Below, one piece after another: positions 1-27,809 of a DNA stretch of 64,000 bases (within the stretch, counting starts at the first letter, position 1; each line of letters opens with the position of its first letter). The translations under genes and the position numbers were made by a program. The stretch is from positions 22,230-86,229 of the forward strand of contig JABHUQ010000034.1 of NCBI GenBank assembly GCA_018658715.1. Reading direction: 5' to 3'. Below the pieces are notes generated by a model. It searched no databases. It saw only the letters and a program-made list of their open reading frames with translations, and was not told the DNA's origin. Origin of the DNA: Fidelibacterota bacterium. GTDB lineage: Bacteria; Fidelibacterota; Marinisomatia; Marinisomatales; UBA1611.

Positions 1-49
1 CAATAAACAACATATTATTTCAGTTATATAACGATTTCTTTATTATATC

Positions 50-122: not shown

Positions 123-127
123 TATTT

Positions 128-532: not shown

Positions 533-894
533 GTGACACATTAAAACTAAAAATTATAGATGTATTAAAACAATGCTACGACCCTGAAATTCCAGTTGAT
601 CTATGGAATCTAGGTCTAATATATAGTATTGATATTATTGATGGGGATGAAAATAAATCAAATATTTCCATTACTATGAGTCTCACAACCCCCGGGTGCA
701 GTATGGGGCATCATATGTCTCAAGATATTGAAACAAAAGTAGGCGCCATGGAAGAGACAGGAGATGTGAATGTAGATGTCACTTTTGACCCCCCTTGGCA
801 ACCTGAAATGATGACAGATGAAGCGCGAACTAAATTAGGTTTTCCTCCAACTCAAGCAAGCCCAAAACCTAAAGAAAGTGAAATGTGGGAATAA
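529..894 (+). CDS. SUF-associated DUF59/MIP18-family Fe-S assembly protein (short form)
   Basis: Motifs CYDPEIPVDLWNLGLIY and LTTPGCSMG are characteristic of DUF59. It lies inside the suf operon. Confidence 0.8.
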   Translation: MSDTLKLKIIDVLKQCYDPEIPVDLWNLGLIYSIDIIDGDENKSNISITMSLTTPGCSMGHHMSQDIETKVGAMEETGDVNVDVTFDPPWQPEMMTDEARTKLGFPPTQASPKPKESEMWE

Positions 895-1253
895 TACAAA
901 TGAACGATGAAACGCCATTAATTGACGGTTCAATTACCGTAACTAAAAAAGCTTCTGATCGCCTAAAAGGCGTCATGTCTTCTGAAGGAAAGGATGGATT
1001 TGCTCTTCGCATGGGCGTGGAAGGTGGTGGATGTTCTGGTATGACTTACAAAATGTCATTTGATGATAAACAAGGGGAATTTGACAAAGTTTTTGAAAGT
1101 AATGGCTTAAAAGTCTATTGTGATTTAAAGAGTTGGCTTTATGTTAAAGATATTACTGTAGATTTTTCTGATGATATGCTTAATGGTGGTTTTAAAATTT
1201 CAAATCCAAATGCAGAACGAACCTGTGGATGTGGAACTAGTTTTTCTGTTTAA
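885..1253 (+). CDS. sufA: A-type Fe-S cluster carrier (HesB/IscA/SufA family)
   Basis: GGGCSGMTY and the C-terminal CGCGTSF motifs. The alternative start at ATG 900 avoids overlap with the upstream stop at 892-894. Confidence 0.82.
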   Translation: MGIIQMNDETPLIDGSITVTKKASDRLKGVMSSEGKDGFALRMGVEGGGCSGMTYKMSFDDKQGEFDKVFESNGLKVYCDLKSWLYVKDITVDFSDDMLNGGFKISNPNAERTCGCGTSFSV

Positions 1254-1274
1254 TAATTATTTATAACTCTTCGT

Positions 1275-2711
1275 ATGACAGATATCATTGAAAAAACAAT
1301 TGAGCAAGATTACAAATATGGTTTTGTAACCAATATTGAGCAAGAAACACTTCCTCCGGGCTTAAGTAAAGATGTAATCCGTACTATTTCTAAACGAAAA
1401 AACGAACCTAAATGGCTATTAGATTGGCGAATTAAAGCATATAATCATTGGCTTAATATGGAAGAGCCTGACTGGGCAAAAGTGGAATATGAGTCTATCA
1501 ATTATCAAAAAATCAGTTATTTTTCTGCTCCAAAAAAGAAAGAACTCAAAAGCCTGGACGAAGTAGACCCAGAATTATTACGTACCTATGATAAATTGGG
1601 TATTCCCCTAGAAGAACAAAAATTGTTAGCCGGTGTAGCTGTGGATGCTGTATTTGATAGTGTATCCATTGCTACAACGTTCAAAGATGAATTAGAAAAA
1701 TATGGTGTCATTTTCATGCCATTTTCAAAAGCAGTCCATAAATATCCAGAATTAATTAAAACATATTTGGGATCTGTTGTACCGTATACTGATAATTATT
1801 TTGCTGCTTTGAATTCTGCTGTATTCAGCGATGGTTCTTTTGTATATATTCCAAAAGGTGTCCGTTGTCCTATGGAATTATCCACCTATTTTAGGATTAA
1901 TGCCCAAAACACAGGACAGTTTGAAAGAACGCTTATTGTTGCTGACAATGATAGTAATGTGAGCTATTTAGAAGGATGTACAGCGCCGCAACGTGATGAA
2001 AATCAACTTCATGCTGCTGTGGTTGAATTGGTCGCTCATAAAAATGCAACCATTAAATATTCCACTGTTCAAAATTGGTATCCAGGAGACCCAAAAACGG
2101 GAAAAGGTGGGATTTATAATTTTGTAACTAAACGTGGTATTTGTAAAGGTGATCATTCTAAAATATCTTGGACACAAGTTGAAACAGGTAGCGCAGTCAC
2201 ATGGAAATACCCTAGTTGTATTTTAAAAGGGAATCATTCTATTGGTGAATTTTATTCAGTTGCTATGGCCAATCATCACCAACAGGCGGATACAGGGACC
2301 AAAATGGTCCATATAGGCACCAATACAAAGAGCACTATTATTTCAAAAGGGATTTCAGCAGGTAAAGGACAAAATACTTATCGCGGTGAAGTAAAAATGA
2401 TGAAAGGTGCTGAAAATGCTCGAAATTTTTCTCAATGTGATTCTATCCTTATTGGTGATGAATGTGGGGCACATACGTTTCCCTATATTGATGTGAGAAA
2501 TCCTACAGCACAAATGGAACATGAAGCAACTACATCTAATATAGGTGAAGACCAACTTTTCTACTGCAATCAAAGGGGCATTTCAACGGAAGATGCTGTT
2601 TCTATGATCGTAAATGGATTTTGCAAAGATGTTTTCGCAGAGTTGCCCATGGAATTTGCAATGGAAGCACAAAAATTAATGGAAATAAGCTTAGAAGGAA
2701 GTGTTGGATAA
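1275..2711 (+). CDS. sufB: Fe-S cluster assembly scaffold SufB
   Basis: 478 aa with typical SufB length and sequence ([24 protein letters not shown]...YRG), followed directly by sufC and sufD. Confidence 0.95.
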
Positions 2712-2714
2712 ACC

Positions 2715-3455
2715 ATGCTAAATATAAAAAGTCTAAAAGCCAGTATTGATGGCAAACCTATTTTAAAAGGAATTAACCTAAATATTAAACCGGGTGAAAT
2801 GCATGCTATCATGGGTTTAAATGGATCAGGTAAAAGTACATTAGCCAACATTATTACAGGAAGAGATTGTTATGATGTATCTGATGGAGATGTTATTTAT
2901 AAGGGAGATTCTCTTTTAGAAAAAAGCCCCGAGACACGAGCTTTAGAAGGTATTTTTATGTCTTTCCAATATCCTGTTGTAATTCCTGGTGTTAATTTAA
3001 CTTACTTTTTAAAAGCCGCATTAAATGCACATCGCAAACATCGAGGTGAAGAAGAGTTAGATGCAATGCGCTTTTTAAAATTTATTCGGGAAAAAATTAA
3101 GCAAGTTGAAATTGATGAAAAATATTTAAAACGAGCTGTAAATGAAGGTTTTTCTGGTGGAGAAAAAAAGCGAAATGAAATCCTTCAAATGATTACACTT
3201 GAACCTTCTCTATCTATATTGGATGAAACAGATTCTGGCTTGGATATTGATGCATTAAAAATTGTCGCCAATGGAGTGAATCAATATCGCAACAAGGATA
3301 ACTCTTTTCTTGTTATTACTCATTATCAACGTCTTTTAAATTATTTAAAACCTGATTTTGTTCATGTACTTATCGATGGAGTAATTGTAAAGTCTGGTGA
3401 TATGACATTAGCGCACAAACTAGAAGAAAAAGGCTATGGTTGGCTAGAGTCATGA
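2715..3455 (+). CDS. sufC: Fe-S cluster assembly ATPase SufC
   Basis: Walker A GLNGSGKST, ABC signature FSGGEKKRNEILQ, Walker B ILDETDSGLD. 246 aa. Confidence 0.95.
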   Translation: MLNIKSLKASIDGKPILKGINLNIKPGEMHAIMGLNGSGKSTLANIITGRDCYDVSDGDVIYKGDSLLEKSPETRALEGIFMSFQYPVVIPGVNLTYFLKAALNAHRKHRGEEELDAMRFLKFIREKIKQVEIDEKYLKRAVNEGFSGGEKKRNEILQMITLEPSLSILDETDSGLDIDALKIVANGVNQYRNKDNSFLVITHYQRLLNYLKPDFVHVLIDGVIVKSGDMTLAHKLEEKGYGWLES

Positions 3456-4714
3456 GTCTTTCCCATTTCCAAGCCGAATTTGAAAAAATGATGAATAGAG
3501 ACTATTTTTCATCAAGCATTCATCCAATGCGAAATGAAGCATTTTCAAAGTTTAATGAGTGTGGATTCCCTACACAAAAATGGGAGGATTGGCAATTCAC
3601 AAACCTTACATCATTACAAAAAGATACTTTCCGTATATCCGAATTGAAGGATGGCCCAACACAAAAAATAGATTTATCTCCCTTTCACATAGATAATGTT
3701 GCCAATATTGTTATTTATAACGGACATTTTCAGAAAGATATATCACATTTTCCTTCTGGCATAAACCTAATGTCTGGTTTAGACTATTTAGAATCGAAAG
3801 AATGGAAATATAATAATACATATGATTCACCCTTCGATTTATTAAATACTGCATTTATGGATAGTGGTATGTCAGTTGTAATTGATGAAAATATGACTAT
3901 TAATACTCCTATTCATATGGTATTTATTTCAAATAGCAATGAACCATTAATGGTAAATCCCAGAGTCCATATAGATGTAGGGGATTCAAGTTCTGCAACA
4001 TTTATTGAGCATCATGTTGGCGTTTCTTCATCCTTTTTTGAAAATGGATCTATTTTTATTAATCTAGAACAAAATGCACAATTAAACCATATTCGCATTC
4101 AATCCAATTCAACAAAAACTATTAGTATGGCTAATATACAGGCGGAACAAAGTTTAGATAGTAAATATACCTTTTTTCAATATGCAGATGGAGGCCAATT
4201 AGGGCGATTAAATATGGTTACTCGTTTGAATGGTGAAGGAGCTGATTGTAACTTAAATGGATTAGCTCTCTCTAAAAACAACCAACATTTAGACCATCAT
4301 ATTATAACAGATCATCGTGTGCCCCATTGCACAAGTTCACAAAATTTTAAATCCATTTTACAAGATAAATCTACTGGTGTCTTTTGTGGAAGAACGATTG
4401 TAAGAGAGCAAGCACAAAAAACAGATTCTAAACAATCCAATAAAAATTTACTCTTATCTAAAAATGCCCTTATGAATTCAAACCCACAGTTGGAAATATA
4501 TGCAGACGATGTAAAATGTTCTCATGGGTCTACAACAGGCGAACTTGACCATGAAGCTCTTTTCTATTTACGTTCTCGTGGCATTGATATGATGGAAGCA
4601 AAAAATTTACTGACCCGTGGTTTTGCAAATGAAATCATGAACGCCATTCGACATAATTGCACTCGTTCATTTATTGATACTAAATTTAAACATTGGTTAG
4701 GGGACGAAGTATGA
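3452..4714 (+). CDS. sufD: Fe-S cluster assembly protein SufD
   Basis: The C-terminal half is SufB/D-like (LEIYADDVKCSHGSTTG, EALFYLRSRGI). I prefer start ATG 3452 because it forms an ATGA overlap with the sufC stop; the ORF opens at 3440. Confidence 0.9.
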   Translation: MSLSHFQAEFEKMMNRDYFSSSIHPMRNEAFSKFNECGFPTQKWEDWQFTNLTSLQKDTFRISELKDGPTQKIDLSPFHIDNVANIVIYNGHFQKDISHFPSGINLMSGLDYLESKEWKYNNTYDSPFDLLNTAFMDSGMSVVIDENMTINTPIHMVFISNSNEPLMVNPRVHIDVGDSSSATFIEHHVGVSSSFFENGSIFINLEQNAQLNHIRIQSNSTKTISMANIQAEQSLDSKYTFFQYADGGQLGRLNMVTRLNGEGADCNLNGLALSKNNQHLDHHIITDHRVPHCTSSQNFKSILQDKSTGVFCGRTIVREQAQKTDSKQSNKNLLLSKNALMNSNPQLEIYADDVKCSHGSTTGELDHEALFYLRSRGIDMMEAKNLLTRGFANEIMNAIRHNCTRSFIDTKFKHWLGDEV

Positions 4715-5130
4715 CAACACTTCCAATTGTTCATCTTCTTCAAGATATTCAAGATTTATTCCAATTTTTTGATGACCCAAAAGATAAGTATGCTCAACTC
4801 ATTGATTTTGGGAAAAAATCTCAAGGGCTTCCAGCTGAAGATTTAATAGAAAAAAATCGCATACATGGTTGTGCTTCAAATGCCTTTGTGAAAATAATTC
4901 AAAACGAAGATCAAACCTTTTTAATTCAAACAGATTCTGATGCACTAATTGTAAAAGGGCTATTAACATTATTAGAAAGAATTTTTCACAACCAACATAA
5001 ATCTGAAATTATGTCTATTAATGGAAGTGATTTATTAAACTCTATTGGTTTGGGGAATTCTATTAGTGGGCAACGTAGTAATGGCTTCACAAATGCAGTA
5101 GAAAAAATTCAAAGAGAAATAGCAAAATGA
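4711..5130 (+). CDS. sufE: Cysteine desulfuration (sulfur acceptor) protein SufE
   Basis: YAQLIDFGKK and the conserved-Cys motif IHGCASNAFV. Start ATG 4711 forms an ATGA overlap with the sufD stop; the ORF opens at 4693. Confidence 0.8.
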   Translation: MTTLPIVHLLQDIQDLFQFFDDPKDKYAQLIDFGKKSQGLPAEDLIEKNRIHGCASNAFVKIIQNEDQTFLIQTDSDALIVKGLLTLLERIFHNQHKSEIMSINGSDLLNSIGLGNSISGQRSNGFTNAVEKIQREIAK

Positions 5131-5669
5131 CACATCCAACAGATTCAATTAAACTTACACGAGATGTGGAAGCTCACCTTGTTCCTTCTGGTGAATCTAT
5201 TACTCTACTTAAAGGGGAACTCGTTAGAATCACCCAATCGCTTGGCGGAAATTATACCGTATTAATTAGTGGTAATATGGCTCAAATACGGGATGAAAAT
5301 GCAGATGCTATTGGCTTTAAGTCTCCAAAAGAAGATATATCAAAAAATAAAAATGAACCTTTTACTGAAGGAATGGTTTGGGACCAAATGAAAACATGTT
5401 ATGATCCTGAAATTCCAGTAAATGTAGTGGATCTTGGGCTTATTTATGGATGTGAAATTTCTGAAATGGATGAAGGGAAATTAGTGGCAATCCAAATGAC
5501 ATTAACAGCTCCCGGATGTGGGATGGGACATATCATAGCTGATGAAGTGAAACGAAAAGTGAATGGGATTCAAGGCGTAGATGATGTCAGTGTAGAGTTG
5601 GTTTGGGAACCACAATGGAATCGCGATATGATGACGGTAGAAGCTCGTCTCGAATTAGGATTATATTAA
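5127..5669 (+). CDS. sufT: Long-form SufT-type Fe-S assembly protein (N-terminal domain plus DUF59)
   Basis: The C-terminal half is CYDPEIPVNVVDLGLIY...LTAPGCGMG (DUF59). About 90 aa of N-terminal extension matches the ~175-aa SufT family. ATGA overlap with sufE. Confidence 0.75.
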   Translation: MTHPTDSIKLTRDVEAHLVPSGESITLLKGELVRITQSLGGNYTVLISGNMAQIRDENADAIGFKSPKEDISKNKNEPFTEGMVWDQMKTCYDPEIPVNVVDLGLIYGCEISEMDEGKLVAIQMTLTAPGCGMGHIIADEVKRKVNGIQGVDDVSVELVWEPQWNRDMMTVEARLELGLY

Positions 5670-5673
5670 TTCG

Positions 5674-6867
5674 ATGCCATCCTTTAAATCAGATTTCCCT
5701 GTTTTTTCTCATGACCCATCTTTAGTTTATCTAGATAGTGCTTCAACCACACAAAAACCAAAAATGGTCATAGATGCATTAAATACATTTTATGAAAAAC
5801 AGAATGCAAATGTTCATCGTGCTTTATATAATTTAGGAGAAGAAGCTACTAATGCTTATGAAAATGCACGCAAAATAGTTGCTCAATTCATCAATGCGCC
5901 ATCCGAAAATACTATTATTTTTACAAAAGGCACCACTGAATCAATCAATCTCGTAGCTTATGCATGGGGCAGGAAATATATTCAAACTGGCGATGAAATT
6001 CTCATTACAGAAATGGAACATCATAGCAACTTAATCCCTTGGCAATTATTAGCAAAAGAGACTGGCGCTAAGCTCAAATACATTCCAATGAAAACAGATG
6101 GACTATTAGACCTAAGCCATTTGGATCATTACTTTTCACCCAAAACAAAACTTTTTTCTATGGTGCATCAGTCCAACGTTTTGGGAACACTCAATCCGAC
6201 TGAAATGCTTATCCAAAAAGCAAAAGAAGTTGGAGCAGTTACAGTATTAGATGCAGCCCAAAGTGTACCACATAAGTCAGTTGATTTTCAAAAACTTGGT
6301 TGCGATTTTATGGCTTTTTCTGGGCATAAAATGTTTGGTCCAACAGGTGTAGGTGTTCTTGTTGGAAATATGAAAATACTTGACAAAATGAATCCATTTC
6401 TTGGTGGTGGAGAAATGATCAATAAAGTTACTTTAAAAGAATCAACGTGGAATAATGTCCCGTATAAATTTGAAGCAGGAACACCCAATATCGCCCAAGC
6501 AGTTGGTTTGGGAGTCGCCATTGATTATATGAATAGTATCGGAATGGATACGATTGAATCAATTGAATACGAACTCACTAAATATGCTTTGGAAAAGATG
6601 AAAAATATTGAGGGAATGATCATCTATGGCCCCAAAGATCGTGGGCCGGTAATTAGCTTTAATATAGCTGGGATCCACGCCCATGATTTAGCCACTTTTT
6701 TAAATCAAGATAATATTGCCATTCGAGTTGGCCACCATTGCGCTCAACCAATTATGGATATATTAGGCGTACCATCCACAGCTCGAGTAAGTTTTCATAT
6801 TTATAATTCTAAAAACGATATTGATATATTTTGTCAAGGTCTTGAAACAACAATTACATATTTTTAG
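5674..6867 (+). CDS. sufS: Cysteine desulfurase SufS (PLP-dependent, class II)
   Basis: SASTTQKP, MEHHSN, PLP lysine in FSGHKMFGPTG, catalytic loop RVGHHCAQP. Confidence 0.92.
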   Translation: MPSFKSDFPVFSHDPSLVYLDSASTTQKPKMVIDALNTFYEKQNANVHRALYNLGEEATNAYENARKIVAQFINAPSENTIIFTKGTTESINLVAYAWGRKYIQTGDEILITEMEHHSNLIPWQLLAKETGAKLKYIPMKTDGLLDLSHLDHYFSPKTKLFSMVHQSNVLGTLNPTEMLIQKAKEVGAVTVLDAAQSVPHKSVDFQKLGCDFMAFSGHKMFGPTGVGVLVGNMKILDKMNPFLGGGEMINKVTLKESTWNNVPYKFEAGTPNIAQAVGLGVAIDYMNSIGMDTIESIEYELTKYALEKMKNIEGMIIYGPKDRGPVISFNIAGIHAHDLATFLNQDNIAIRVGHHCAQPIMDILGVPSTARVSFHIYNSKNDIDIFCQGLETTITYF

Positions 6868-7218: not shown

Positions 7219-7650
7219 ATGGCAGATAAAAAGAACAGAGCAAGTTGGGAACAATATTTTATGAATATTGCTACCGAAGTGGCCACACGATCCACCTGCG
7301 ATCGTAAACATGTTGGGGCTGTAATTGTTCGGGAAAAAACAATTTTATCCACTGGGTATAATGGAAGTATAAAAGGCCTGCCTCACTGTGATGAAGTTGG
7401 TCACGAAATGGTTGATGATCACTGTGTACGGACCACTCACGCAGAAGCAAATGCTATTGTTCAAGCTGCAAAAAATGGTGTTAGTATTAATGGGTCAGAA
7501 ATATATGTAACAGCATCCCCCTGTTATAATTGTTTTAAACTCATTGCTAATTCTGGTATAAAGACAATTTATTTTGATGAGTTTTATCGAGATGAACGCA
7601 TCATAAACCACGCAAAAGAATCGGGTGTTGAATTAGTCGAGATTGACTAG
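7219..7650 (+). CDS. dCMP (deoxycytidylate) deaminase
   Basis: Zinc motifs HAEANAI and PCYNCFKLI. 143 aa. Confidence 0.85.
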   Translation: MADKKNRASWEQYFMNIATEVATRSTCDRKHVGAVIVREKTILSTGYNGSIKGLPHCDEVGHEMVDDHCVRTTHAEANAIVQAAKNGVSINGSEIYVTASPCYNCFKLIANSGIKTIYFDEFYRDERIINHAKESGVELVEID

Positions 7651-7669
7651 TACATCGGAAGTCATTTTG

Positions 7670-9874
7670 ATGATTCCATCTAGCATTCCATTTCTATTCC
7701 GTTTTTTTGTACCAATTTTCCTTTCCATTGCTTCGGCGCAAATTTATGATATATCTATCCCACCCCAAGATGATGATTCTTACGAATATGCAGATTTCAG
7801 GATATACATCAATGATTCGTTAGAAACAATTCGAGGTGTATACTTTTTTATGCACCCTTGGCATGGAGATTCTCGAAATATTGTTAATGACGAAATGTTA
7901 AAAGCGTTATGTGATTCATCTCAATTTGCATTAATGGGTGCTCATTTTGATAATATGCACATGGAAACCGGTGTGGGTGATGCAGTGATTGATGCGATGA
8001 ATGGATTTGTCGAGATGACAGGGAAAACCGAATTAGCCTACACTCCCTTTTTTATAAATGGATATTCTTGGGGTGGTCAATTTGGCTATCATTTTACTGT
8101 TTGGGATCCAGATAGAGTAATTGGTTTTATCACTCAAAAAGGCGGGTACCACGATACAACAGATGCGGGCGATGCCATTTCTGTCCCTGGACTCATGTTT
8201 ATTGGTGAAGATGATTTGGATTATCGTATTACAAATCTCACGGGTGTTTTCTTAAATCACCGACCTATAGGAGCTCAATGGAGTCTTGCAGTAGAACAGG
8301 GGTCAGGGCATTCTCAGGTTCAAGATTGGGATTTATTAAATGCATTTTTCTACCATACAGTTCAACTACGATTACCTGATTCAACAGAATCAAATCATCC
8401 TGTAGAACTATTACCTATCGACAATCAAGATGCTTGGTATGGCGACCAATCAAGTTGGGTGATTGGATCATATGAATGTTATGATGGTGTGGTAGATTCT
8501 TCTTCCTGGTTCCCATCACAAAAAGTGGGCGAACTTTGGCAAAATTTTGCATCAGAAGGAACTGTGGAAGATACGAGTGAATGTGATGGGCCCCAAAATG
8601 TGAGTATACGCATTCCTGCGGAATGGGAGAGCCAGAAAGCAATATGGCTCCAGTGGCCACTTCAATTTGAACATTGGATGCGCCCTGAAATGGCTAACGT
8701 AATTGCCACGGTTCAAACTTTTGAAGATGTACATTTAATAGTACAAAATGAGAGTCATTTAGCCGATGCACAATCACAAGTTCAAGAGCAAGGTGGGAAT
8801 CCATTTAATTTAAATTATCATATATGGGAGCATAACAACGCTTGGCTCCGAGATAATGGCCCACTGTATGTTAAACAAGAAAATGAATTAACTATTCATA
8901 ATATGCAATTTGATTCTTGGGGTGGTTTAGTCCCCAATTATCAAGAAGATAATGCCATACCCTGCACTATTGCTTACGAGCTAGGATTAGATTGTAATAC
9001 ATTGGATTTTATTATGGAAAGAGGAAACCTCGAATTTAATGGCTCCGGAGCTCTTATCACCAATTGGGATTGTTGGGCAGATAGAAACCCAAATTTAGTT
9101 CAAAATGAATTAGATCTTTATTTAAAACAGATATGGGGATTAGATCAAATCGTGTGGACCTATGGACATTCTGAATGGGATGTAACTACTGGCCATATTG
9201 ACGGTGTGGCGCGATTTGTGAATGATTCTACGGTTCTTGTTGGGAATGTTATCAATGCAAATGATCCCGATGCTTGGATATGTGATTCAGCAGCCGTTGT
9301 TATTGAAAATGCAGGATTTAATGTAGTCAGAATGGATATGCCCGGATACATTGATTATTATAATTGGACTATTCCTGCACTTTATCTTAATTACATCATA
9401 GTGGATGGTGCCATCATTGGGAATGCTTATAACGTTCCTGAATGGGATAATGAAGCTCAATCTTTATTAGAAGTATTATTCCCTCGCTATGAAGTCATTT
9501 TATTATACACACCAGAAGTAAATCTTTCTGGAGGTGGGATTCATTGTATTACTAATGATCAGCCTGAAATCATTGATATTTTGAGTATGAAAAATAATAA
9601 TTTACTCCCTTCACAATTTCAACTTCATAACCCCTACCCAAATCCCTTTAATCCAACAACCATCATCCCATTTTCGGTAGAAACGCAGAGTATAGCATCT
9701 CTACAGTTGTACGAAATAACTGGTCGGTTGGTGGAAATATTATTTGATGGTATTCTTGATCCTGGAAATCATAAAATAAAATGGGATGCTTCAGCACAAT
9801 CCAGCGGGATCTATTTTGTTGTCCTAAAAACCCCTAATAAAACATTATTGAAAAAACTGGTTTTATTAAAATAA
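7670..9874 (+). CDS. Secreted three-part protein: alpha/beta-hydrolase-like domain, agmatine deiminase/PAD_porph-family domain, and T9SS C-terminal sorting domain
   Basis: Signal peptide IPFLFRFFVPIFLSIASAQ. GYSWGG nucleophile elbow with later GEDD and GSGHS. Deiminase motifs IPAEWESQKAIWLQWP, NNAWLRDNGP, GHIDG and catalytic GGGIHCITNDQP. CTD YPNPFNPTT...SGIYFVVLK...LVLLK (nt ~9614-9871). The ORF opens at TTG 7643; ATG 7670 is preferred. Confidence 0.8.
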   Translation: MIPSSIPFLFRFFVPIFLSIASAQIYDISIPPQDDDSYEYADFRIYINDSLETIRGVYFFMHPWHGDSRNIVNDEMLKALCDSSQFALMGAHFDNMHMETGVGDAVIDAMNGFVEMTGKTELAYTPFFINGYSWGGQFGYHFTVWDPDRVIGFITQKGGYHDTTDAGDAISVPGLMFIGEDDLDYRITNLTGVFLNHRPIGAQWSLAVEQGSGHSQVQDWDLLNAFFYHTVQLRLPDSTESNHPVELLPIDNQDAWYGDQSSWVIGSYECYDGVVDSSSWFPSQKVGELWQNFASEGTVEDTSECDGPQNVSIRIPAEWESQKAIWLQWPLQFEHWMRPEMANVIATVQTFEDVHLIVQNESHLADAQSQVQEQGGNPFNLNYHIWEHNNAWLRDNGPLYVKQENELTIHNMQFDSWGGLVPNYQEDNAIPCTIAYELGLDCNTLDFIMERGNLEFNGSGALITNWDCWADRNPNLVQNELDLYLKQIWGLDQIVWTYGHSEWDVTTGHIDGVARFVNDSTVLVGNVINANDPDAWICDSAAVVIENAGFNVVRMDMPGYIDYYNWTIPALYLNYIIVDGAIIGNAYNVPEWDNEAQSLLEVLFPRYEVILLYTPEVNLSGGGIHCITNDQPEIIDILSMKNNNLLPSQFQLHNPYPNPFNPTTIIPFSVETQSIASLQLYEITGRLVEILFDGILDPGNHKIKWDASAQSSGIYFVVLKTPNKTLLKKLVLLK

Positions 9875-9919: not shown

Positions 9920-11059
9920 ATGAGTTGGGTTATGATAAGATTTATTTTACTTTTATTGCCAATCTATTTGTTGGCACAAAATAATGTTTGTTTTGACATT
10001 GAAGATAATCCTTATCCCAACCATCCAGCGTTTGGGGTTTTTTCAAAATATGTCAATGTTTTGGGCACTATTGATATTTATGCTGAGTCCAGTATTTCTG
10101 ATGAAAAGATACTTCATGTAGCTGCAGTTACGGCAGAATTATTAGATAATGATGAAGATGGAAATATTGATGATCCGCTGATTGAATCTTCACTAATTGA
10201 ATTGAATACTGTTATGCCGGTGTTCCAGTATGAGAATGGAAATGCCATTGAAACATTTTTTGATAATCTAGATGACGATGGGTGTACTGGTGCTGTATTA
10301 TTCAAAAATGAAATTGATCCAAACCAACCTGGTCATTGGGGAGACGATGCTACAGTGGAAGAAGTATTACACACTATAAACGCATGCGGTCATGTGGAAG
10401 TTTATCCCTCGCTCTACGCACTCTTGCCAAATTCATCTGAATTGACAGATGCCATGGATGTTGCTCGAGGTGGACAATTTATGTCCATTCCAAATCCATA
10501 TCCAGATGAGGCTTGGTATCATTACGATGACTGGACATGTGATTATGAATGTATGGCTATGGAATATTTATATTGGTGCGTCGTCACAAATATGGGCATT
10601 TTAGCAGATACGGAAACGTGTAATGGCATTGCAAACGAGTGGGAACCTTGCAGCCTGGAATTGTTTGAATCTACCGATATATTAATGTTTAATTTGGTTA
10701 CTAATTCTGAAAATAAACTGCCACAACTTGCGCCGGACGGGAATTACTGTACCGAACAGGTGGATACTGATTCTGAAATTATTCCCGGTGATTATCCGCT
10801 ATTATCGCTGTATCCTAATCCTTTCAACCCCACATCTACTATCCAGTTTCATATTGGTATAGAGGCACAGTTTATCTTATCTCTCCTTCAAATAATCGAT
10901 ATTAATGGTCATATTGTGGAAACGTTGGTAAATGGGAAATTGCACCCTGGTGATCATGAAATAAATTGGGATGCCTCGGACTTTCCCAGCGGTGTGTATT
11001 TTGTTCAATTAAAAACGGGGAATAAAATCAAAACTGAGAAAATAATTCTTTTAAAATAA
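9920..11059 (+). CDS. Secreted Cys-rich protein of unknown function with a T9SS C-terminal sorting domain
   Basis: Signal peptide MIRFILLLLPIYLLAQ, many Cys residues, an acidic DNDEDGNIDD loop, and CTD LYPNPFNPTSTIQF...SGVYFVQLK...IILLK (nt ~10790-11056). Confidence 0.75.
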   Translation: MSWVMIRFILLLLPIYLLAQNNVCFDIEDNPYPNHPAFGVFSKYVNVLGTIDIYAESSISDEKILHVAAVTAELLDNDEDGNIDDPLIESSLIELNTVMPVFQYENGNAIETFFDNLDDDGCTGAVLFKNEIDPNQPGHWGDDATVEEVLHTINACGHVEVYPSLYALLPNSSELTDAMDVARGGQFMSIPNPYPDEAWYHYDDWTCDYECMAMEYLYWCVVTNMGILADTETCNGIANEWEPCSLELFESTDILMFNLVTNSENKLPQLAPDGNYCTEQVDTDSEIIPGDYPLLSLYPNPFNPTSTIQFHIGIEAQFILSLLQIIDINGHIVETLVNGKLHPGDHEINWDASDFPSGVYFVQLKTGNKIKTEKIILLK

Positions 11060-20785: not shown

Positions 20786-20920
20786 ATGTTTGAACTATTT
20801 AAACCATTCCTAAAAAACGATATTGTTTTAGCCAACTTATTGTTCACGCTCGGCATTGTGATTTTATTACTTACAGTCGTTTGGAAAATCAATCCGCGAA
20901 AAAAGAATAATCAAAGATAA
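20786..20920 (+). CDS. Possible small single-pass membrane protein (44 aa), absent from the ORF track
   Basis: My own translation: MFELFKPFLKNDIVLANLLFTLGIVILLLTVVWKINPRKKNNQR. It has a hydrophobic core and a basic tail but no clear RBS. Confidence 0.25.
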   Translation: MFELFKPFLKNDIVLANLLFTLGIVILLLTVVWKINPRKKNNQR

Positions 20921-21065
20921 TTACGCTCTTTTTTTCGTATTGATTTGTCTTGGTTTTCATGCCAATATATTGATAGTTTTAACTATTCAATCTATAAAAG
21001 TACGTGGATTGAATCCTTCAAAGAGAGGTATTTCTTTATTTAACAAACTAAACAGGAGTATATAT

Positions 21066-22847
21066 ATGAAATCATTTGTTAACATTCTATTAGCATCTGT
21101 GATGTTTATCGGTGTTGCTTTTTCTCAATCTATTCAAGGGAACTATCAGTTGAATTATGTGACAGTTCATTATACCTATGAAGTGAGAGAATTTGACAGT
21201 GCTCAAGATAGCGCAGAAGCTTCATATGACATAACGGCATCTTGGCCCAGTTCTGAATATGCTGCCGCAGGTATGGGTGTCACATGGGATTTATTGGGAT
21301 TTGAACCGGGCGATACGCTCGGGACAACGTTAATTCCTCTTATTTCACCAGAATACCTCGCAGGTTTTGGATATATGCTTACGGGCGATCCTACTGCACC
21401 AGGCGTAGCCATCAATATTGATCTTTATGATGATGGAAACTTTACAATCAATGATGGAAGTACTTACCCAACGACAGAAACCATTGATTGCTCTACCACA
21501 GCTGTAATACCTGCTGTCGCAGAAAATGGTACTTGGCAAGGAACGGCTCTTCTTCCGGTCGATGAAGATACATATACACTTGGTTGGGGGATCACACAAT
21601 CTGAAGTATTTGCTCAATTTAATGCTCCTGATTTAGCGACCATGGAATATGGTGTTGATTTTGGATCAGGGACTACTATGGAAAATTGGGGACAAATGAC
21701 TGTGAATTACACAGATAATACATTAGCTCAGACATCTGACGTAGAAATTTATTGGGAAGCTCATGATGGTGTTGGAAGTGCCTTAGGCGTTGATGATAAT
21801 GGATTTCTTAATGGAAGCACTGGTGTCCCAACTTTGGCATCTGATACTGTTACAATTGGTGGGACTGCTGCACTATTAGCATACTATCAGTCTCTTGGTT
21901 ATTATGCAGATGTTGCACCAATTAATGTTGGTACATACCCTATGATTAATGGACCTGGAAGTGAAGAAGTAGATGAAAATGGTGAGACAGTCACTGTGGG
22001 AGTAGTCGATGCAAACTGGGGATATTTATTCGACCCGGTTGGAGGCGATGGAGAACCTTTTACTGGTGACGAATTATTTCAGTTTACTGGTTATTATTTT
22101 ACATACAACTTCTTATCCACTGCTTTGACATTTATGGATACTGCTGAAGCAGTTTTTGATGCAACATCTGGTGATGTGACTGCTGCATATACAGCTGGTT
22201 TTGTTGCTGTTGCAACCATGTGGGGTGTTGATAGTGAAACTGCAGCTGCATATGGAGCTCAAGTAGGGGCTGATTTATATGCCGAATTCCTCAGTTGTTT
22301 TACAACAACAGGAGACTTAGACGGATGTGCGGAAGAAGTAGCATACGCAGGTATTGTTATGTCACTAGGTGCATTAGCACAAATGGGCATTGATGTAGAT
22401 GATTCTGATCATGACTCGCAAGTTGATCCAAGTACTGGAGGTTTCTCTACAGGTCGTCTTATTTGGGAAATAGATAATGTCTGTATCCCTGATAATACTA
22501 CACAGCGTGTGAATCCAAAATTCTATAATACTGCTGTTGTATCTGTTGATAATAATGCTCCCCTTGCTGCTAAATTTGAATTGTTTGGGAACTATCCAAA
22601 CCCGTTCAATCCAACAACTAGTATCAAATTTGCTACTGAAAAATTCACTAATGTGAATTTAACCATCTACTCTATACTTGGTGAAGAAGTAGCTACGGTT
22701 CACAATGGCAAATTAGCGGCAGGTACATATTCCATGTCTTGGAATGGAAAAAATAACTTTGGGAATAATGTTCCAAGTGGAATGTATTTCTACAAAGTGA
22801 AATCTGATAACCGTACTTTAACAGGAAAAATGCTCCTGTTGAAATAA
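21066..22847 (+). CDS. Secreted protein of unknown function with a T9SS C-terminal sorting domain
   Basis: AGGAG lies upstream of ATG 21066. Signal peptide MKSFVNILLASVMFIGVAFSQ. The body is rich in G, T, A and D with no domain I recognise. CTD YPNPFNPTTSIKF...SGMYFYKVK...MLLLK (nt ~22572-22844). The ORF opens at 20940 but that extension looks non-coding. Confidence 0.78.
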   Translation: MKSFVNILLASVMFIGVAFSQSIQGNYQLNYVTVHYTYEVREFDSAQDSAEASYDITASWPSSEYAAAGMGVTWDLLGFEPGDTLGTTLIPLISPEYLAGFGYMLTGDPTAPGVAINIDLYDDGNFTINDGSTYPTTETIDCSTTAVIPAVAENGTWQGTALLPVDEDTYTLGWGITQSEVFAQFNAPDLATMEYGVDFGSGTTMENWGQMTVNYTDNTLAQTSDVEIYWEAHDGVGSALGVDDNGFLNGSTGVPTLASDTVTIGGTAALLAYYQSLGYYADVAPINVGTYPMINGPGSEEVDENGETVTVGVVDANWGYLFDPVGGDGEPFTGDELFQFTGYYFTYNFLSTALTFMDTAEAVFDATSGDVTAAYTAGFVAVATMWGVDSETAAAYGAQVGADLYAEFLSCFTTTGDLDGCAEEVAYAGIVMSLGALAQMGIDVDDSDHDSQVDPSTGGFSTGRLIWEIDNVCIPDNTTQRVNPKFYNTAVVSVDNNAPLAAKFELFGNYPNPFNPTTSIKFATEKFTNVNLTIYSILGEEVATVHNGKLAAGTYSMSWNGKNNFGNNVPSGMYFYKVKSDNRTLTGKMLLLK

Positions 22848-22888
22848 TTGTGTTTATTTACAACGTTTAATTAACAATAACTAAAAAA

Positions 22889-22922
22889 TGAGCAGTCTGA
22901 ATTCAGACTGCTCATTTTTATT
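22889..22922 (+). terminator. Rho-independent terminator after the T9SS protein gene
   Basis: Perfect palindrome TGAGCAGTCTGAATTCAGACTGCTCA (22889-22914) followed by TTTTTATTAT. Confidence 0.75.
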
Positions 22923-22932
22923 ATGGCACCTT

Positions 22933-25900
22933 ATGAAAAAAATCATTCTATTATTCTTATTATTTAACTTTGTTTTTTCACAAAACAGCTCATTATCTGG
23001 CTATGTGAAAGACGAAACAAATGGAGATCCCTTACTCGGTGCAAATGTTGTCCTTTCCGGAACGACTATGGGTGCAGCAACAGGTATGGATGGAAGTTAT
23101 AATATTACAAATATAAAGGCTGGAGATTATAAAATTTTAGTGACCTATATTGGTTTCGAAACATTGGAGTTTAATTTAACCATACCCTATAACGAATCAA
23201 TCCAACAAGATTTTAATTTATCACCTGAAGCAATTCAGATGGAAACATACGTAGTAACTGCTTCTAGAAGGCGCGAACGTGTTGAAGATGCTCCTGCAGC
23301 TATTTCTGTAATTACAAAAAAAGATATTCGTAGAGAAAGTAATACTAATCTCGGAGACTATTTAAAAGGAACAAAAGGAATTGATTTCACCCAATCTGGC
23401 ATTGATAGTTACAATATGACAGCACGAGGATTTAATTCATCCTTTAGCTCACGATTATTAACATTGACCGATGGACGTATGGCAAATGTGCCATCCTTAC
23501 GATTAACGGCCTATAATGTAATTCCAGTATCTTTTGAAGATGTTGAACAAATAGAAGTCGTACTTGGCCCATCATCTGCTTTGTATGGCCCTAATGCTCA
23601 TAGTGGCGTATTAAATATTGTAACAAGTTCCCCGCTTCGTACGCAAGGAACATCTATTAATATTCAAGGTGGTTTTTTAAATCAGGCGGATACAGATTTA
23701 CTGCAAAAATTAACATTTAGGACAGCCCACAAATATAAAGATTTTGGTTTTAAAATTTCTGGTGTCGCATTGCGAGGCCAAGATTGGACGCATTATAATG
23801 CTGATGAATTAGAAGGCCACGATCCTGCCTTTATAGGGCGTCCAAATTTAAAACACAATTTTATAGATAATGGCGGGAATCCCGGTGAAGGGAACAGCCC
23901 ACTTTTTACGGAAGATATGTTAGGATATTTCGACGATGCAAATGAAAGTTGGATTGGTAAAACATTTGGAGATAATATAGCATCTTTTTCATCTGAAACA
24001 GGCTCCCCTATTATTACTGAAGATATGGTCGCTGAGGCCCAAAGTGACCCATTTAACCGATACTTTTTAGATAATGGTATTATTCTTTGGTATGTGACTG
24101 AAGATAAAATTGGTTCACAATATGCTGATGGGATAGACAATAATGGAGATGGCGCTATTGATGAAGGAATTGATCTAGGAATTGATGACGATTCTGAAAT
24201 TTGGTATGACAATGTAGACAATGATGGAGATGGCCTCGTAGATGAAGCAGATGAAATTGGAAGTGCGTGGCTAGATCGATTTGGTAGCACATTTGAAGGG
24301 GATTTAAATTACACAGTGGGCGTTGGGGTTGACTCCACCCATAAATTTGGGTTTGGAGATTATGAGTATGATGATGATGGAAATATTATTTTTGACACAA
24401 ATGGAAATGGTGAATTCAACGATTCCTGGGGAAGTGATGGTTTAGATAATGATGGTGATTGGGATCTTTACGTCGATACTGATGGAATGACCTATGGCGT
24501 AGAAGAAGAAACATTTTCTGACTTGAACGAGAATGGGACTTTAGACGGGAAAGAGCTATTTATTGATGGGAATGGAAATGGAACATGGGAAGATGGTGAA
24601 GTTCTCATTGATTGGGGTCTTGATGGGGTTGATGGAACTGGAGATTTTGGTGAAGGAAATGGAACATGGGATGGTGAAACTTTTACTGATTTAAATGGAA
24701 ATGGAACATGGGATCAGTTTGAGAATAACGATTTAGATGGAGATGGAAAACCCAGCATGGGTGAAGTAGGTGTGGATGAATTCGATGAAAAGGATTTTGT
24801 GATGAATTATGGAGATCTTCCTCGGATCTATAAAGATGCGAATGATGATGGTCTTAATGATTACCCAGACTTTAATGTAAGAAATTATAGGTATGACTTA
24901 AGATTCGATTGGGAACCAAACCCTGATTTTACCCTAAGTCTATCCCATGGATATGCTTGGGCACGAAATATTAATATTACTGGAATTGCTCGTTATTTAG
25001 CCGATGGTTGGGTTTATCGTTATTACCAAGGTAAAATTCGTTGGAAAAATTTCTTTTTACAAACATACCTTAATTCTAGCTATTCCGGCGAATCAGATCA
25101 CCCTACTAGAAATTTAGCTACAGGATCTTTGATTTATGATCGATCAAAAAAATTCAGCGCACAATTCCAGCACGCGATGGAATTATTAAAAGGAGATCTT
25201 CGGTTTGTTTGGGGGGTAGACTATTTCCTCACCATGCCCAATACACGCGGGACTATATTATCAGATAAAGAACTCGTAGATCGGAAAGATAATAATGGAA
25301 CGGGTGAAGCGGGTTCCCCCTATACATTTGCAGATAGGAATGATAATACATTTTATGACGATGGAGAATTTTATTCTACATGGGCAACAGATACACCTGG
25401 AGCATTTGGAGGAACACCTTCTGATACATTAAGTGTAAACAATGATGGTTCGGTTACATATTCTGATAATGTATTTCATGCTTTAGCCGATGGTTTTGAT
25501 AATGATGGTGATAGTGATGATTTTGAGGATTTAAATGGAAATGGTCTACCGGACTTTGATGATGCAGATGGTGATGGACTATACTCTTACGGCGAGACGG
25601 TTGAACCTGGAGTAAAGTGGATTGGTGAAAATATCTTTTTTGTTTATTCAGATGGCATTGATAATGATGGCGATGGGAAAATTGATGAAAATATTGATGA
25701 GGGGATTGATGAAGCATCCGAAGATAATAGATATACCGTAAATGAATTAGGTGCTTATTATCAAGTAAATTGGAAACTAAATGATAAGTTAGAAATTATT
25801 CAAGCTACACGCCTTGATATTCATGATAGACTTACAAACTTAATTGAATTTAATAATCAAGGATATGGGATGGGATATAACCCTTTAGATTGGGAATTTG

Positions 25901-27015
25901 ATGCATCGCAAAAAAATGGTCTACAATTTTCACCTAAAATTGGTTTCTCCTATAGACCAAAAGAGAATCAAAATTTTCGATTAACTTGGGCTACTGCTTT
26001 TAATACACCCACAAACCAAGCTTTATTTTTGGACATATTTGTAACGCGTGTATCCATTTTTAAAGTGTATGCGCGGGGTGCAGATGGAGGCTATAATTTC
26101 CCCAGAAATGAATTGGGAAACCCTTATTATTATGATATAGAAGAATTTGAATATATGCCAGTGGACACTTCAGAAAGTATGTTCTTCTATCCATCTGTTG
26201 ATCCTCGAATTGAAGGATTCTATGGACAAACAGTTATTGACCTTCCTGAAATTGAAGCAGAAATTGTTAATTCATGGGAAGTGGGATATAAGGGTCGATT
26301 GAATAACAGACTTTTTGGGACACTAGATTTATATACAAGCCATTATAGCAGTTTTGTTAGCCCTGTAACTTTTATTACTCCTATTGTTCTAGAAAGATCT
26401 ATTCTTGAAACGGATTATAATAATGATGGTGTAATGAATACGATTGAAGATTTCAATAATGATATTATTTTAGATCAAGATGATTATGATAAATCTTTTG
26501 ATCATTGGAGAGATGGCATTCAAGGTGTAACGGCAATGGATACAATTGCCGGATTAGCACCTCCTGTTGTGGTTGGCTATATCAACTATGGGGAAGTCGA
26601 TATGTGGGGAATGGATGCAAGTTTAACTTGGTTTATTAACCGTGAATGGAATTTAGATGTTACATACTCACATCTCAGCATGACTGAATTCTTTAATCCA
26701 ATAACTAAAGCAAAAGATCCCATTAATGCGCCAAAACATAAAGGAAGTTTAAAATTACAATATGCACCTCGTAGATGGCCTGTTTCTACATCTTTAAATG
26801 CACGATATGTGGATGGATATAATTGGTCATCTGGAATCTATTTTGGGAAAATTGATCCATATACCATTTTGGATCTTCACGTTGGATATACATTCAACGA
26901 TAATCTTTCTGGTAATTTGACAGTCAATAATTTATTAGATAATCGTCATACAGAAATTATTGGCGGTCCATCATTAGGGCGTGTAGTTGTATTTAGATTA
27001 TCGACAAAATTATAA
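22933..27015 (+). CDS. Very large TonB-dependent receptor (CarboxypepD_reg-like domain, plug, barrel) with two long acidic Ca-binding-type repeat inserts
   Basis: Signal peptide MKKIILLFLLFNFVFSQ. GYVKDETNGDPLLGANVVLSG. TonB box and plug ETYVVTASRRRERVEDAPAAISVI...LTDGRMANVP...VEVVLGPSSALYGPNAHSGVLNIV. Barrel-like C-terminal part. Inserts are listed as separate features. The track start at 22888 lies inside the upstream terminator hairpin, so ATG 22933 is preferred. Confidence 0.85.
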   Translation: MKKIILLFLLFNFVFSQNSSLSGYVKDETNGDPLLGANVVLSGTTMGAATGMDGSYNITNIKAGDYKILVTYIGFETLEFNLTIPYNESIQQDFNLSPEAIQMETYVVTASRRRERVEDAPAAISVITKKDIRRESNTNLGDYLKGTKGIDFTQSGIDSYNMTARGFNSSFSSRLLTLTDGRMANVPSLRLTAYNVIPVSFEDVEQIEVVLGPSSALYGPNAHSGVLNIVTSSPLRTQGTSINIQGGFLNQADTDLLQKLTFRTAHKYKDFGFKISGVALRGQDWTHYNADELEGHDPAFIGRPNLKHNFIDNGGNPGEGNSPLFTEDMLGYFDDANESWIGKTFGDNIASFSSETGSPIITEDMVAEAQSDPFNRYFLDNGIILWYVTEDKIGSQYADGIDNNGDGAIDEGIDLGIDDDSEIWYDNVDNDGDGLVDEADEIGSAWLDRFGSTFEGDLNYTVGVGVDSTHKFGFGDYEYDDDGNIIFDTNGNGEFNDSWGSDGLDNDGDWDLYVDTDGMTYGVEEETFSDLNENGTLDGKELFIDGNGNGTWEDGEVLIDWGLDGVDGTGDFGEGNGTWDGETFTDLNGNGTWDQFENNDLDGDGKPSMGEVGVDEFDEKDFVMNYGDLPRIYKDANDDGLNDYPDFNVRNYRYDLRFDWEPNPDFTLSLSHGYAWARNINITGIARYLADGWVYRYYQGKIRWKNFFLQTYLNSSYSGESDHPTRNLATGSLIYDRSKKFSAQFQHAMELLKGDLRFVWGVDYFLTMPNTRGTILSDKELVDRKDNNGTGEAGSPYTFADRNDNTFYDDGEFYSTWATDTPGAFGGTPSDTLSVNNDGSVTYSDNVFHALADGFDNDGDSDDFEDLNGNGLPDFDDADGDGLYSYGETVEPGVKWIGENIFFVYSDGIDNDGDGKIDENIDEGIDEASEDNRYTVNELGAYYQVNWKLNDKLEIIQATRLDIHDRLTNLIEFNNQGYGMGYNPLDWEFDASQKNGLQFSPKIGFSYRPKENQNFRLTWATAFNTPTNQALFLDIFVTRVSIFKVYARGADGGYNFPRNELGNPYYYDIEEFEYMPVDTSESMFFYPSVDPRIEGFYGQTVIDLPEIEAEIVNSWEVGYKGRLNNRLFGTLDLYTSHYSSFVSPVTFITPIVLERSILETDYNNDGVMNTIEDFNNDIILDQDDYDKSFDHWRDGIQGVTAMDTIAGLAPPVVVGYINYGEVDMWGMDASLTWFINREWNLDVTYSHLSMTEFFNPITKAKDPINAPKHKGSLKLQYAPRRWPVSTSLNARYVDGYNWSSGIYFGKIDPYTILDLHVGYTFNDNLSGNLTVNNLLDNRHTEIIGGPSLGRVVVFRLSTKL
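23790..24880 (+). repeat. Intragenic repeat region 1 of the receptor: reiterated DxDxDG / DxNxNGxxD acidic loops
   Basis: DGIDNNGDGAIDEGID, DNVDNDGDGLVDEADE, DGLDNDGDWD, DLNENGTLDGKE, DGNGNGTWEDGE, EGNGTWDGE, DLNGNGTWDQ, DLDGDGKPS. Near-identical nucleotide units (aatggaaatggaacatggga) recur around 24570-24710. Confidence 0.7.
25264..25725 (+). repeat. Intragenic repeat region 2 of the receptor: acidic Ca-binding-type loops
   Basis: DRKDNNGTGE, DGFDNDGDSDDFEDLNGNGLPDFDDADGDGLY, DGIDNDGDGKIDENIDEGIDE. Confidence 0.65.
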
Positions 27016-27212: not shown

Positions 27213-27809
27213 ATGATTGAATATTTAATTTCGCTTGACGTATCACTTTTTCAATTTATGAATTCAGGATTATCAAATACTTTATTTGATATCTTGATGC
27301 CAAAAATAACACACCAAAATAATTGGATAATTCCACTTTGTATACTTTTCTATATACTGCTATTTAAGACAGGGAAAAGAGGGAAAATTGCATTTATAAT
27401 ATTATTAATTGGATTTGGAATTACTGATTATTTTTCAGCTCAATATATTAAACCTTTCATTGGCCGTATTAGACCATCACACTCAATGCTGGATTCTATT
27501 CATCTTTTAGTTAATAAGGGGGGGAAATGGAGTTTCCCATCAAATCACGCAGCAAATAGTTTTGTTCTCGCTACCATTCTAAGTTATTTTTTTTCACAAT
27601 GGAAGTACCCGCTCTTTATATTAGCATCTCTCATTGGATTTTCAAGAATTTATGTGGGTGTTCATTACCCTGGGGATGTTGTCTTTGGAGCTTTACTTGG
27701 TTATTGTATTGCTTGGATATTATTAAGTATTTGGGTTATCCTAAAAATGAGAGAATTAAAACGCGGACGTACCTGGGTGTGGTATACCAGCGATACTATA
27801 AATAAGTAA
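27213..27809 (+). CDS. PAP2-family membrane phosphatase (lipid phosphate / undecaprenyl-diphosphate phosphatase type)
   Basis: The three PAP2 motifs are present: KPFIGRIRP, PSNHA, SRIYVGVHYPGD. Multi-TM. Confidence 0.85.
   Translation: MIEYLISLDVSLFQFMNSGLSNTLFDILMPKITHQNNWIIPLCILFYILLFKTGKRGKIAFIILLIGFGITDYFSAQYIKPFIGRIRPSHSMLDSIHLLVNKGGKWSFPSNHAANSFVLATILSYFFSQWKYPLFILASLIGFSRIYVGVHYPGDVVFGALLGYCIAWILLSIWVILKMRELKRGRTWVWYTSDTINK

Follow-up and report, generated by a model that had tools for sequence, protein, structure and literature searches.

A predicted type IX secretion cargo and a giant TonB-dependent receptor form a two-gene unit across sampled Marinimicrobia

In the SusC/SusD and RagA/RagB systems of Bacteroidota, a TonB transporter extended by a CarboxypepD_reg domain is encoded beside a surface accessory, and this adjacency is kept throughout the phylum. 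The TbpA/TbpB and HasR/HasA systems of Proteobacteria likewise consist of a TonB receptor that is aided by a separate extracellular or surface protein capturing the ligand, and the has accessory is produced in surplus. A third arrangement is found among type IX secretion system (T9SS) cargoes, where in SprB/SprF and PG1035/PorP the cargo gene adjoins the gene of an outer-membrane beta-barrel and the cargo is held by that barrel (PMC9143113). Here we describe a gene pair in a 64,000-nucleotide (nt) stretch of the genome of a Fidelibacterota bacterium (contig JABHUQ010000034.1, positions 22,230 to 86,229; hereafter the window, meaning the whole stretch), whose host belongs to the Marinimicrobia. 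The first gene, here called X, encodes a predicted T9SS cargo with an unrecognised body, and the second encodes a giant TonB-dependent receptor. The pair was considered both as SusC/SusD and as a T9SS type B cargo with its PorP-type barrel; both assignments were rejected because the defining features of SusC, SusD and type B/PorP are missing, and the pair is hence a member of none of these systems. A search of the literature on Marinimicrobia (SAR406), TonB receptors and T9SS returned no description of it; one paper notes that the genomes of SAR406 contain many Por-CTD proteins and TonB receptors (10.1101/095471). Our tentative reading is that X, abundant at the cell surface, cooperates with the receptor as its partner in capture or docking, in the manner of SusCD, TbpAB and HasRA. 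The parts of the pair are as follows.

21066..21125, + strand: X signal peptide, amino acids (aa) 1–20, with predicted cleavage before Gln21
21126..22580, + strand: X body, aa 21–505, restricted to Marinimicrobia and of unrecognised fold in the predicted model, with D+E = 70 and K+R = 5
22593..22847 (including the stop codon), + strand: X T9SS type A C-terminal sorting domain (CTD), aa 510–593, matched by TIGR04183, PF18962 and PF13860
22884..22919, with a T-run to 22924, + strand: hairpin of the intrinsic-terminator type, with a perfect 16-bp stem and a 4-nt loop
22933..27015, + strand: giant TonB-dependent receptor, 1360 aa, recognised by Pfam and NCBIfam
23920..25092, + strand: receptor insert 1, aa ~330–720, acidic, isoelectric point (pI) 4.05, with seven DxDxDG-type motifs
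25330..25812, + strand: receptor insert 2, aa ~800–960, acidic, with DxDxDG-type motifs at aa 866 and 910

Across all sampled Marinimicrobia, the two genes make up a unit. The order X then receptor on the same strand is present in the window and 11 other fetched loci (L001–L006, L007 and L167–L170) and in 65 of 66 informative metagenome loci. X identity among the pair-bearing loci ranges from 85% down to ~28%, with the distant L167–L170 at 28–33%, and the spacer between the genes is 63–99 nt in all loci. Fourteen further metagenome contigs were uninformative, given that they end before the X stop codon or at most 201 nt past it; three of these show the start of the receptor. The single exception is locus L155 (positions 1–5414), where X breaks off near aa 350 of the fragment and runs into panC and Bacteroidota-like genes; this contig of 2.3x coverage is probably an assembly chimera. 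As a background, of 79 unrelated loci with T9SS cargo in related phyla, only 2 have a receptor gene directly downstream. This set comprises 79 of the 80 loci from a contig scan with the full-length X alignment that were pulled in by the CTD motif PNPFNPxT.

The genes outside the pair are more variable. At the upstream junction most loci have a divergent etfB; L001 and L169 carry an inserted gene for a Na/sulfate-type symporter, and in L167 and L168 the etf cluster has been flipped into a co-directional orientation. Downstream of the receptor, the lineages carry PAP2, DUF3467, a cation-efflux gene or Ni-SOD, and in further lineages 3-hydroxyacyl-CoA dehydrogenase with MaoC hydratases, AtuA, an NMO-like gene, MerR or a PKD protein. 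The outer junctions have thus been rearranged in some lineages and the inner junction between X and receptor never. Loss of synteny in other genomes had been set beforehand as a refutation test of a link between the two genes; what is found is adjacency kept family-wide while the neighbours on both sides change. A small open reading frame (ORF) between etfB and X (~20786–20921) is not conserved and was dropped.

This pattern bears on an alternative that we consider doubtful, namely that X is an independent, very abundant S-layer-like coat protein with no link to transport. The adjacency would then be inherited gene order, and the receptor inserts would merely reach through the coat or be unrelated to it. 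The collinearity of the entire block around the pair within the phylum is what such a reading would predict, whereas the repeated rearrangement of the outer junctions, set against an inner junction that is never broken and a spacer held within narrow limits, is not. The layout of the X gene and the composition of its product, treated below, also bear on the coat alternative.

X itself is an ORF on the + strand from the ATG at 21066 to the stop codon at 22847, encoding 593 aa, with an AGGAG Shine-Dalgarno site 5' of the ATG and the same start Met in orthologs. Its N-terminus reads as a Sec signal peptide, MKSFVNILLASVMFIGVAFS with cleavage before QS, and lacks a lipobox Cys, as read from the sequence and conserved in orthologs. 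Gln stands at the +1 position of the predicted cut in both proteins, as Q21 of X, which is at least 90% conserved, and as aa 17 of the receptor in 14 of 16 orthologs. Gln after the signal-peptide cut (the 'Q-rule') is a pattern of exported proteins of Bacteroidota and is here seen in another phylum. The CTD (aa 510–589) scores 40.8 bits against the type A model TIGR04183 (cut-off 23), 35.4 bits against PF18962 (cut-off 27) and 48.1 bits against PF13860, whereas the type B sorting model TIGR04131 stays below threshold (14.9 versus 35). With a Sec signal peptide and a type A CTD above the curated cut-off, X qualifies as a predicted T9SS type A cargo, one of three CTD cargo genes within the window. 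In contrast to its CTD, aa 1–505 of X yield no Pfam or NCBIfam match, leaving ~485 residues of body without a family. The body is rich in T (11.4%), G (11.0%), A (10.5%) and D (8.9%), and across the family K+R has a median of only 1.25% (range 0.8–5.4%) against 14% for D+E. These data bear out the initial annotation, which had described a secreted protein of 593 aa with a T9SS CTD, an unrecognised body and much G, T, A and D, located 85 nt upstream of the receptor on the same strand.

The receptor has a signal peptide (aa 1–16), a CarboxypepD_reg-like N-terminal extension (aa 21–108), a plug (aa 117–226; PF07715, 72.5 bits) and a TonB barrel (PF00593, 96.2 bits) that is matched to aa 1334 and runs to the protein end. 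A TonB box, ETYVVTA, lies at aa 104–110, and ETYVVTAS (104–111) aligns with ETMVVTAS of CirA (2hdf), with TonB box and plug together matching that structure at E = 1.3e-21. The two large inserts have a pI of about 4 and contain nine DxDxDG-type motifs in total, visible as diverged DNA repeats, of which those in insert 1 resemble calcium loops and lie at aa 402, 429, 488, 530, 545, 586 and 635. All complete receptor orthologs are 1170–1387 aa long and each carries 5–10 DxDxDG motifs. TSP_3, dockerin and EF-hand Pfam models find nothing in the inserts at E up to 0.1, leaving the DxDxDG-type pattern alone, from which we infer that the inserts, presumably extracellular, may bind calcium.

An assignment of the receptor to SusC/RagA was rejected. 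It reaches 96.8 bits against TIGR04056 (cut-off 368), in the N-terminal part only, and 13.1 against the signature model TIGR04057 (cut-off 46.2). The rule that a SusC needs a SusD is hence inapplicable, and a missing SusD is expected rather than an anomaly. The initial annotation had rightly reported no SusD-like gene, and none is found beside the pair, among the scanned window ORFs or in 10 gene-called orthologous loci. Its premise of a Bacteroidota SusC-type receptor fails, given the Marinimicrobia host and the two sub-threshold scores, and with it the idea that a 'SusD-less' pair is unusual. X was also tried as a SusD-like protein and rejected, having no Cys lipobox and no SusD Pfam match, and being predicted as mostly beta with one four-helix bundle. 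Unlike the SusC/SusD systems, the pair described here thus has an accessory candidate that is no lipoprotein, resembles SusD neither in sequence nor in predicted fold, and bears a T9SS CTD; the partner gene comes first, and a conserved terminator separates the genes. The Proteobacterial accessories TbpB and HasA, for their part, are a lipoprotein or a type I secretion system substrate with known folds and ligands, whereas X would take the T9SS route and has an unrecognised fold.

A comparison with SprB/SprF raises the possibility of a reversed dependence, in which the receptor-like barrel serves X as a surface anchor or in its export and does not import anything through X. Pairs of a cargo and an adjacent barrel have precedent in SprB/SprF and PG1035/PorP, as noted above. 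In addition, Oar of Myxococcus, a CarboxypepD_reg-type TonB receptor sharing its N-terminal domain with the receptor described here, is reported to be required for secretion of the protein PopC (PMC6434023), and the calcium-loop inserts could act as docking modules. We nevertheless regard this arrangement as very improbable. The CTD of X is type A and not type B, and the barrel is a full 22-strand-type TonB receptor with plug and canonical TonB box, not a 14-strand FadL-like PorP. The terminator between the genes would moreover place X far above the barrel in amount, a poor fit to a 1:1 anchor. Oar itself shares the order of CarboxypepD_reg, plug and barrel and a non-Bacteroidota host without SusD; it is not known to have a conserved T9SS cargo partner upstream and lacks calcium-loop inserts, and the likeness described here is one of shared domains.

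The spacer between X and the receptor (22848–22932, 85 nt) contains the hairpin, which starts 37 nt past the X stop codon, has 6 G-C pairs, and is flanked by an A5 run on one side and a TTTTT tail on the other. Its folding energy of −25.9 kcal/mol corresponds to z = −6.2 against shuffled sequences, and none of 200 shuffles equals it. Under strict scanning, 57 of 61 distinct orthologous spacers have a hairpin in the equivalent position, and the remaining four still fold, with energies of −22 to −27 kcal/mol. Compensatory changes keep the pairing in 14 of 14 consensus stem pairs when 22 diverse hairpins are aligned. By stem, U-run, place and covariation, the element is classed as a predicted intrinsic (rho-independent) terminator. 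The initial annotation had proposed a strong hairpin terminator here; the hairpin is present, and the coordinates given then (22889–22922) were a few bases off at each end. Against Rfam, the hairpin matches no family, with only a sub-threshold microRNA match that we attribute to chance, and the surroundings of the pair contain no riboswitch or other known RNA in that database.

The start codon of the receptor follows 10–35 nt past the hairpin. This leaves scant space for a promoter of its own, and receptor expression probably relies on read-through from X. Since the hairpin is conserved with covariation, differential expression looks designed into the pair, which strengthens the earlier caveat that the two genes may be expressed differently, and the conserved terminator argues for much X and little receptor. 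The design resembles that of major-subunit-first operons such as those of fimA and papA, in which a stem-loop comes after the leading gene, whose product is an abundant surface protein, and the downstream genes are made less. The likeness is one of gene design only, without homology, and the attenuation proposed here is predicted from sequence. Two further elements lie upstream of X.

20947..20981, + strand: candidate X promoter of the Fibrobacteres–Chlorobi–Bacteroidetes (FCB) type, with a −33-like CTTGG and a −7-like TAGTTTT
20986..21013, + strand: predicted stem-loop at the 5' end of the X mRNA leader, suggestive only (RNAfold, leader −11.4 kcal/mol, z = −3.5)

A motif TTTG-N17-23-TAnnTT[TC] is present ~60–90 nt before the X ATG in 51 of 64 distinct orthologous upstream regions and predicts a 5' untranslated region of ~62 nt. 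This is the promoter type of Bacteroidota/FCB, and its recurrence suggests that Marinimicrobia use a Bacteroidota-type promoter. The −33 element of the window itself is degenerate and the strict promoter pattern is not matched. A 5'-proximal leader hairpin with z < −1.5 is predicted in 57% of the 51 upstream regions with the motif. Four short contigs (L105, L154, L159 and L160) start 18–65 nt before X or end 12–79 nt past its stop codon, and the end of the L159 contig coincides with the exact foot of the hairpin. Their shape would fit assembled monocistronic X transcripts.

Much of this gene layout would suit a coat protein. The X gene looks monocistronic in design, with promoter motif, leader, Shine-Dalgarno site and terminator, and several short contigs end 12–80 nt from its boundaries in a manner suggestive of monocistronic transcripts. 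Its product has a cheap, acidic composition with much T, G, A and D and hardly any K or R, as is typical of abundant extracellular proteins in general, and Tannerella has S-layer proteins that are exported by T9SS. Against a coat without any transport link stands the position of the receptor start codon, with expression probably by read-through from X, and neither Pfam, NCBIfam nor Foldseek gives any lattice-forming or S-layer family signal.

The X family is narrow. Searched alone against 1.84 billion representative proteins, the body returns only 77 matches, and the full-length relatives with source names are all labelled 'Candidatus Marinimicrobia' or Neomarinimicrobiota. The CTD is the best-conserved portion of X and is kept in all 26 diverse full-length members scanned; additional domains in this set are a lamin-tail domain in two and CBM_4_9 in one. 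Some members are longer, with ~906–929 aa in L150, L157 and L163–L165, 807 aa in L131 and 764 aa in L170, the long proteins having 200–330 added residues between body and CTD or inside the body. Conserved motifs of the family include STYPTT.T.NC.T, WG.GI..S.VFA.F and YWEA.DG, as well as GY.FDP.G.DG.PF.GDE..Q.TGYYFT.NF, DDSDHD and GRL.FE.DN.CIP...TQ. X diverges faster than its neighbours, with a mean p-distance of 0.41 compared with 0.25–0.27 for parts of the receptor and 0.30 for etfB, as expected of an exposed protein.

An AlphaFold2 model built on a 144-sequence alignment reached a mean predicted local distance difference test (pLDDT) of 81.2 and a predicted template modelling score of 0.65, compared with a pLDDT of only 47.9 from an earlier 26-sequence alignment. 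The model predicts a beta-rich core, in which the first and last long strands (aa 25–40 and 472–488) flank an inserted four-helix bundle (aa 347–439), followed by a linker and an Ig-like CTD. The CTD is modelled with seven strands at aa 517–591 (pLDDT ~75–85) and is matched in Foldseek by the CTD of RemA bound within the SprA complexes 8gl6_D and 8gl8_D (TMt 0.54–0.59) and by FlgD, PorU and PorZ. A search of the X profile against PDB sequences gave the FlgD Ig domain as the sole match. In this model, the body of X is an unrecognised fold.

The same family data inform a further alternative, that X is a secreted or surface enzyme of new fold that releases from a polymer or particle what the receptor imports. 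T9SS-secreted hydrolases feed uptake systems in Bacteroidota, and many type A CTD cargoes are hydrolases; another cargo within the window (7643–9874) has an agmatine-deiminase-like core. The acidic residues D328, D335, E336, D446 and D450 of X are (nearly) invariant and could make an acid pair, and the lamin-tail and CBM_4_9 domains of some family members would also suit an enzyme. We still find this quite improbable. X matches no enzyme family, and outside the CTD its model resembles no hydrolase, lyase or esterase fold. H233 (EAHDG motif) and H449 (DDSDHD) vary in distant members, and the diverse alignment contains no invariant His, Ser, Glu or Lys set of a hydrolase-like kind. Its invariant positions are instead mainly Gly, Pro, aromatic residues, Asp, two Cys and two Arg, which gives them a structural or cation-binding look. 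The initial annotation had named a soluble secreted enzyme with an unrelated function as an outcome that would speak against an uptake role, and neither the family nor the fold searches give a sign of a known enzyme.

Taken as a capture or docking partner, X would be exported by Sec and then carried across the outer membrane by means of its type A CTD, to end as an abundant, strongly acidic protein of the cell surface. From its own promoter and strong ribosome-binding site, most transcripts would end at the conserved terminator after X and a minority would read through to the receptor, leaving X in excess and the receptor scarce. X would then capture or dock the transported substrate for the receptor, which would import it using TonB. 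The likeliest contact would be between X and the large, acidic, calcium-loop-like inserts of the receptor, and calcium may bridge the two. The pair probably cooperates at the cell surface. The full version, in which a T9SS-delivered, calcium-bridged acidic protein of new fold, present in large excess, docks on the calcium-loop extensions of the receptor and hands over the substrate, we consider unlikely. Overall, the uptake-module reading of the initial annotation is partly supported, and tethering of X to the surface, its binding to the receptor inserts and substrate capture would be plausible parts of it.

Several points weigh against cooperation between X and the receptor. A terminator between the two genes also fits two independent genes, and contact between their products is proposed from genome evidence. 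With both proteins strongly acidic, cations would have to bridge them for direct binding. Cargo that carries a type A CTD can be released instead of being anchored. No T9SS machinery (SprA/Sov, PorV, PorU or GldKLMN) was found among the window ORFs scanned, and whole genomes were not searched; the three CTD cargo genes of the window and the many Por-CTD proteins reported from SAR406 (10.1101/095471) point indirectly to such machinery. A Foldseek comparison of the X model with PDB and BFVD matched the CTD and nothing in the body, and hence gives no lead to a bound ligand. Although the inner junction is never broken, etfBA, DUF3467, TerB-DnaJ and methylmalonyl-CoA mutase also remain near the pair in most lineages; part of the synteny signal is thus plain small-genome collinearity, and synteny supports a link without proving it. 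Mirror-tree partial correlations, finally, are 0.37 between X and the inserts and 0.39 between X and etfB, an unrelated control, and do not set the inserts apart from it.

The neighbourhood offers weak hints that the substrate may be iron or another metal, or a compound feeding beta-oxidation. In the window, the pair has etfBA upstream and PAP2 and DUF3467 downstream. Metal-related neighbours comprise suf genes in the window and L168, Fe-S assembly in L169, Ni-SOD in L170 and CDF efflux in L167 and L168. The suf genes of the window form a sufB-sufC-sufD-(ORF)-sufS operon for Fe-S assembly at 1275–6867 (+ strand), ~14 kb upstream of the pair. Transcripts of TonB-dependent transporters of Marinimicrobia rise under iron limitation, the gene family concerned being generic (PMC11069385). 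An acyl-CoA context is given by the electron transfer flavoprotein and its oxidoreductase, which are always beside the pair, the flavoprotein genes on its upstream side, with a carboxyltransferase close by. In some lineages the same-strand genes directly after the receptor are those of beta-oxidation or acyclic-terpene use, namely 3-hydroxyacyl-CoA dehydrogenase, two MaoC hydratases, a FadB-like fusion, AtuA, an NMO-like gene and MerR. These and the other two CTD cargo genes of the window are located as follows.

L094, 7858–9993: beta-oxidation/terpene genes
L126, 9097–11019: beta-oxidation/terpene genes
L103, 13050–14846: beta-oxidation/terpene genes
L132, 14313–15434: beta-oxidation/terpene genes
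L111, 13026–14012: beta-oxidation/terpene genes
L110, 11757–12137: beta-oxidation/terpene genes
Window, 7643–9874, + strand: further T9SS type A cargo, with an agmatine- or peptidylarginine-deiminase-like core at aa 315–557 and a CTD
Window, 9920–11059, + strand: further T9SS type A cargo of 379 aa, in which the CTD is the sole recognised part

The PAP2-family phosphatase gene follows the receptor at 27213–27809 (+ strand) in the window, and likewise in many, not all, lineages. In P. gingivalis, a lipid A phosphatase of the PAP2 type is reported to be T9SS-dependent (PMC12704123). A different, possibly SusD-less cassette was seen in two metagenome-assembled genomes, one of Ignavibacteriales (L053, 1427–8083) and one of Bacteroidota (L076, 3192–13874). 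Its order is a CTD protein, then a receptor with CarboxypepD_reg, plug and barrel (1083 and 1053 aa), then a protein of ~700 aa that has no Pfam match and ends in a CTD-like tail, IRIVPNPY...IYSE.GELV...SG.YIAV...FVV.R. The proteins adjoining these receptors were examined as homologs of X and rejected (hhalign probability 0.2).

Marinimicrobia have no cultured members and rank with the most abundant bacteria in the mesopelagic ocean and in oxygen-minimum zones; ideas about their substrates and modes of uptake are largely guesses drawn from annotation. The pair described here occurs in all lineages sampled, seems designed for strong expression and includes a protein family without known relatives. 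The cassettes in the Ignavibacteriales and Bacteroidota genomes suggest that the theme of a receptor plus a CTD protein may extend to SusD-poor relatives of Bacteroidota. If X is instead a coat protein, it would still make a good candidate for the phylum's main surface protein. If X and the receptor cooperate, they would be the first uptake system of accessory plus receptor in which the accessory is delivered by T9SS; this would explain the giant calcium-loop receptor and provide a concrete marker for metaproteomics and metatranscriptomics. Should the calcium-bridged version hold, the pair would be a nutrient-capture machine of a kind not described before, and a counterpart of SusCD that spans the phylum without using a lipoprotein, in one of the most abundant bacterial groups of the dark ocean.

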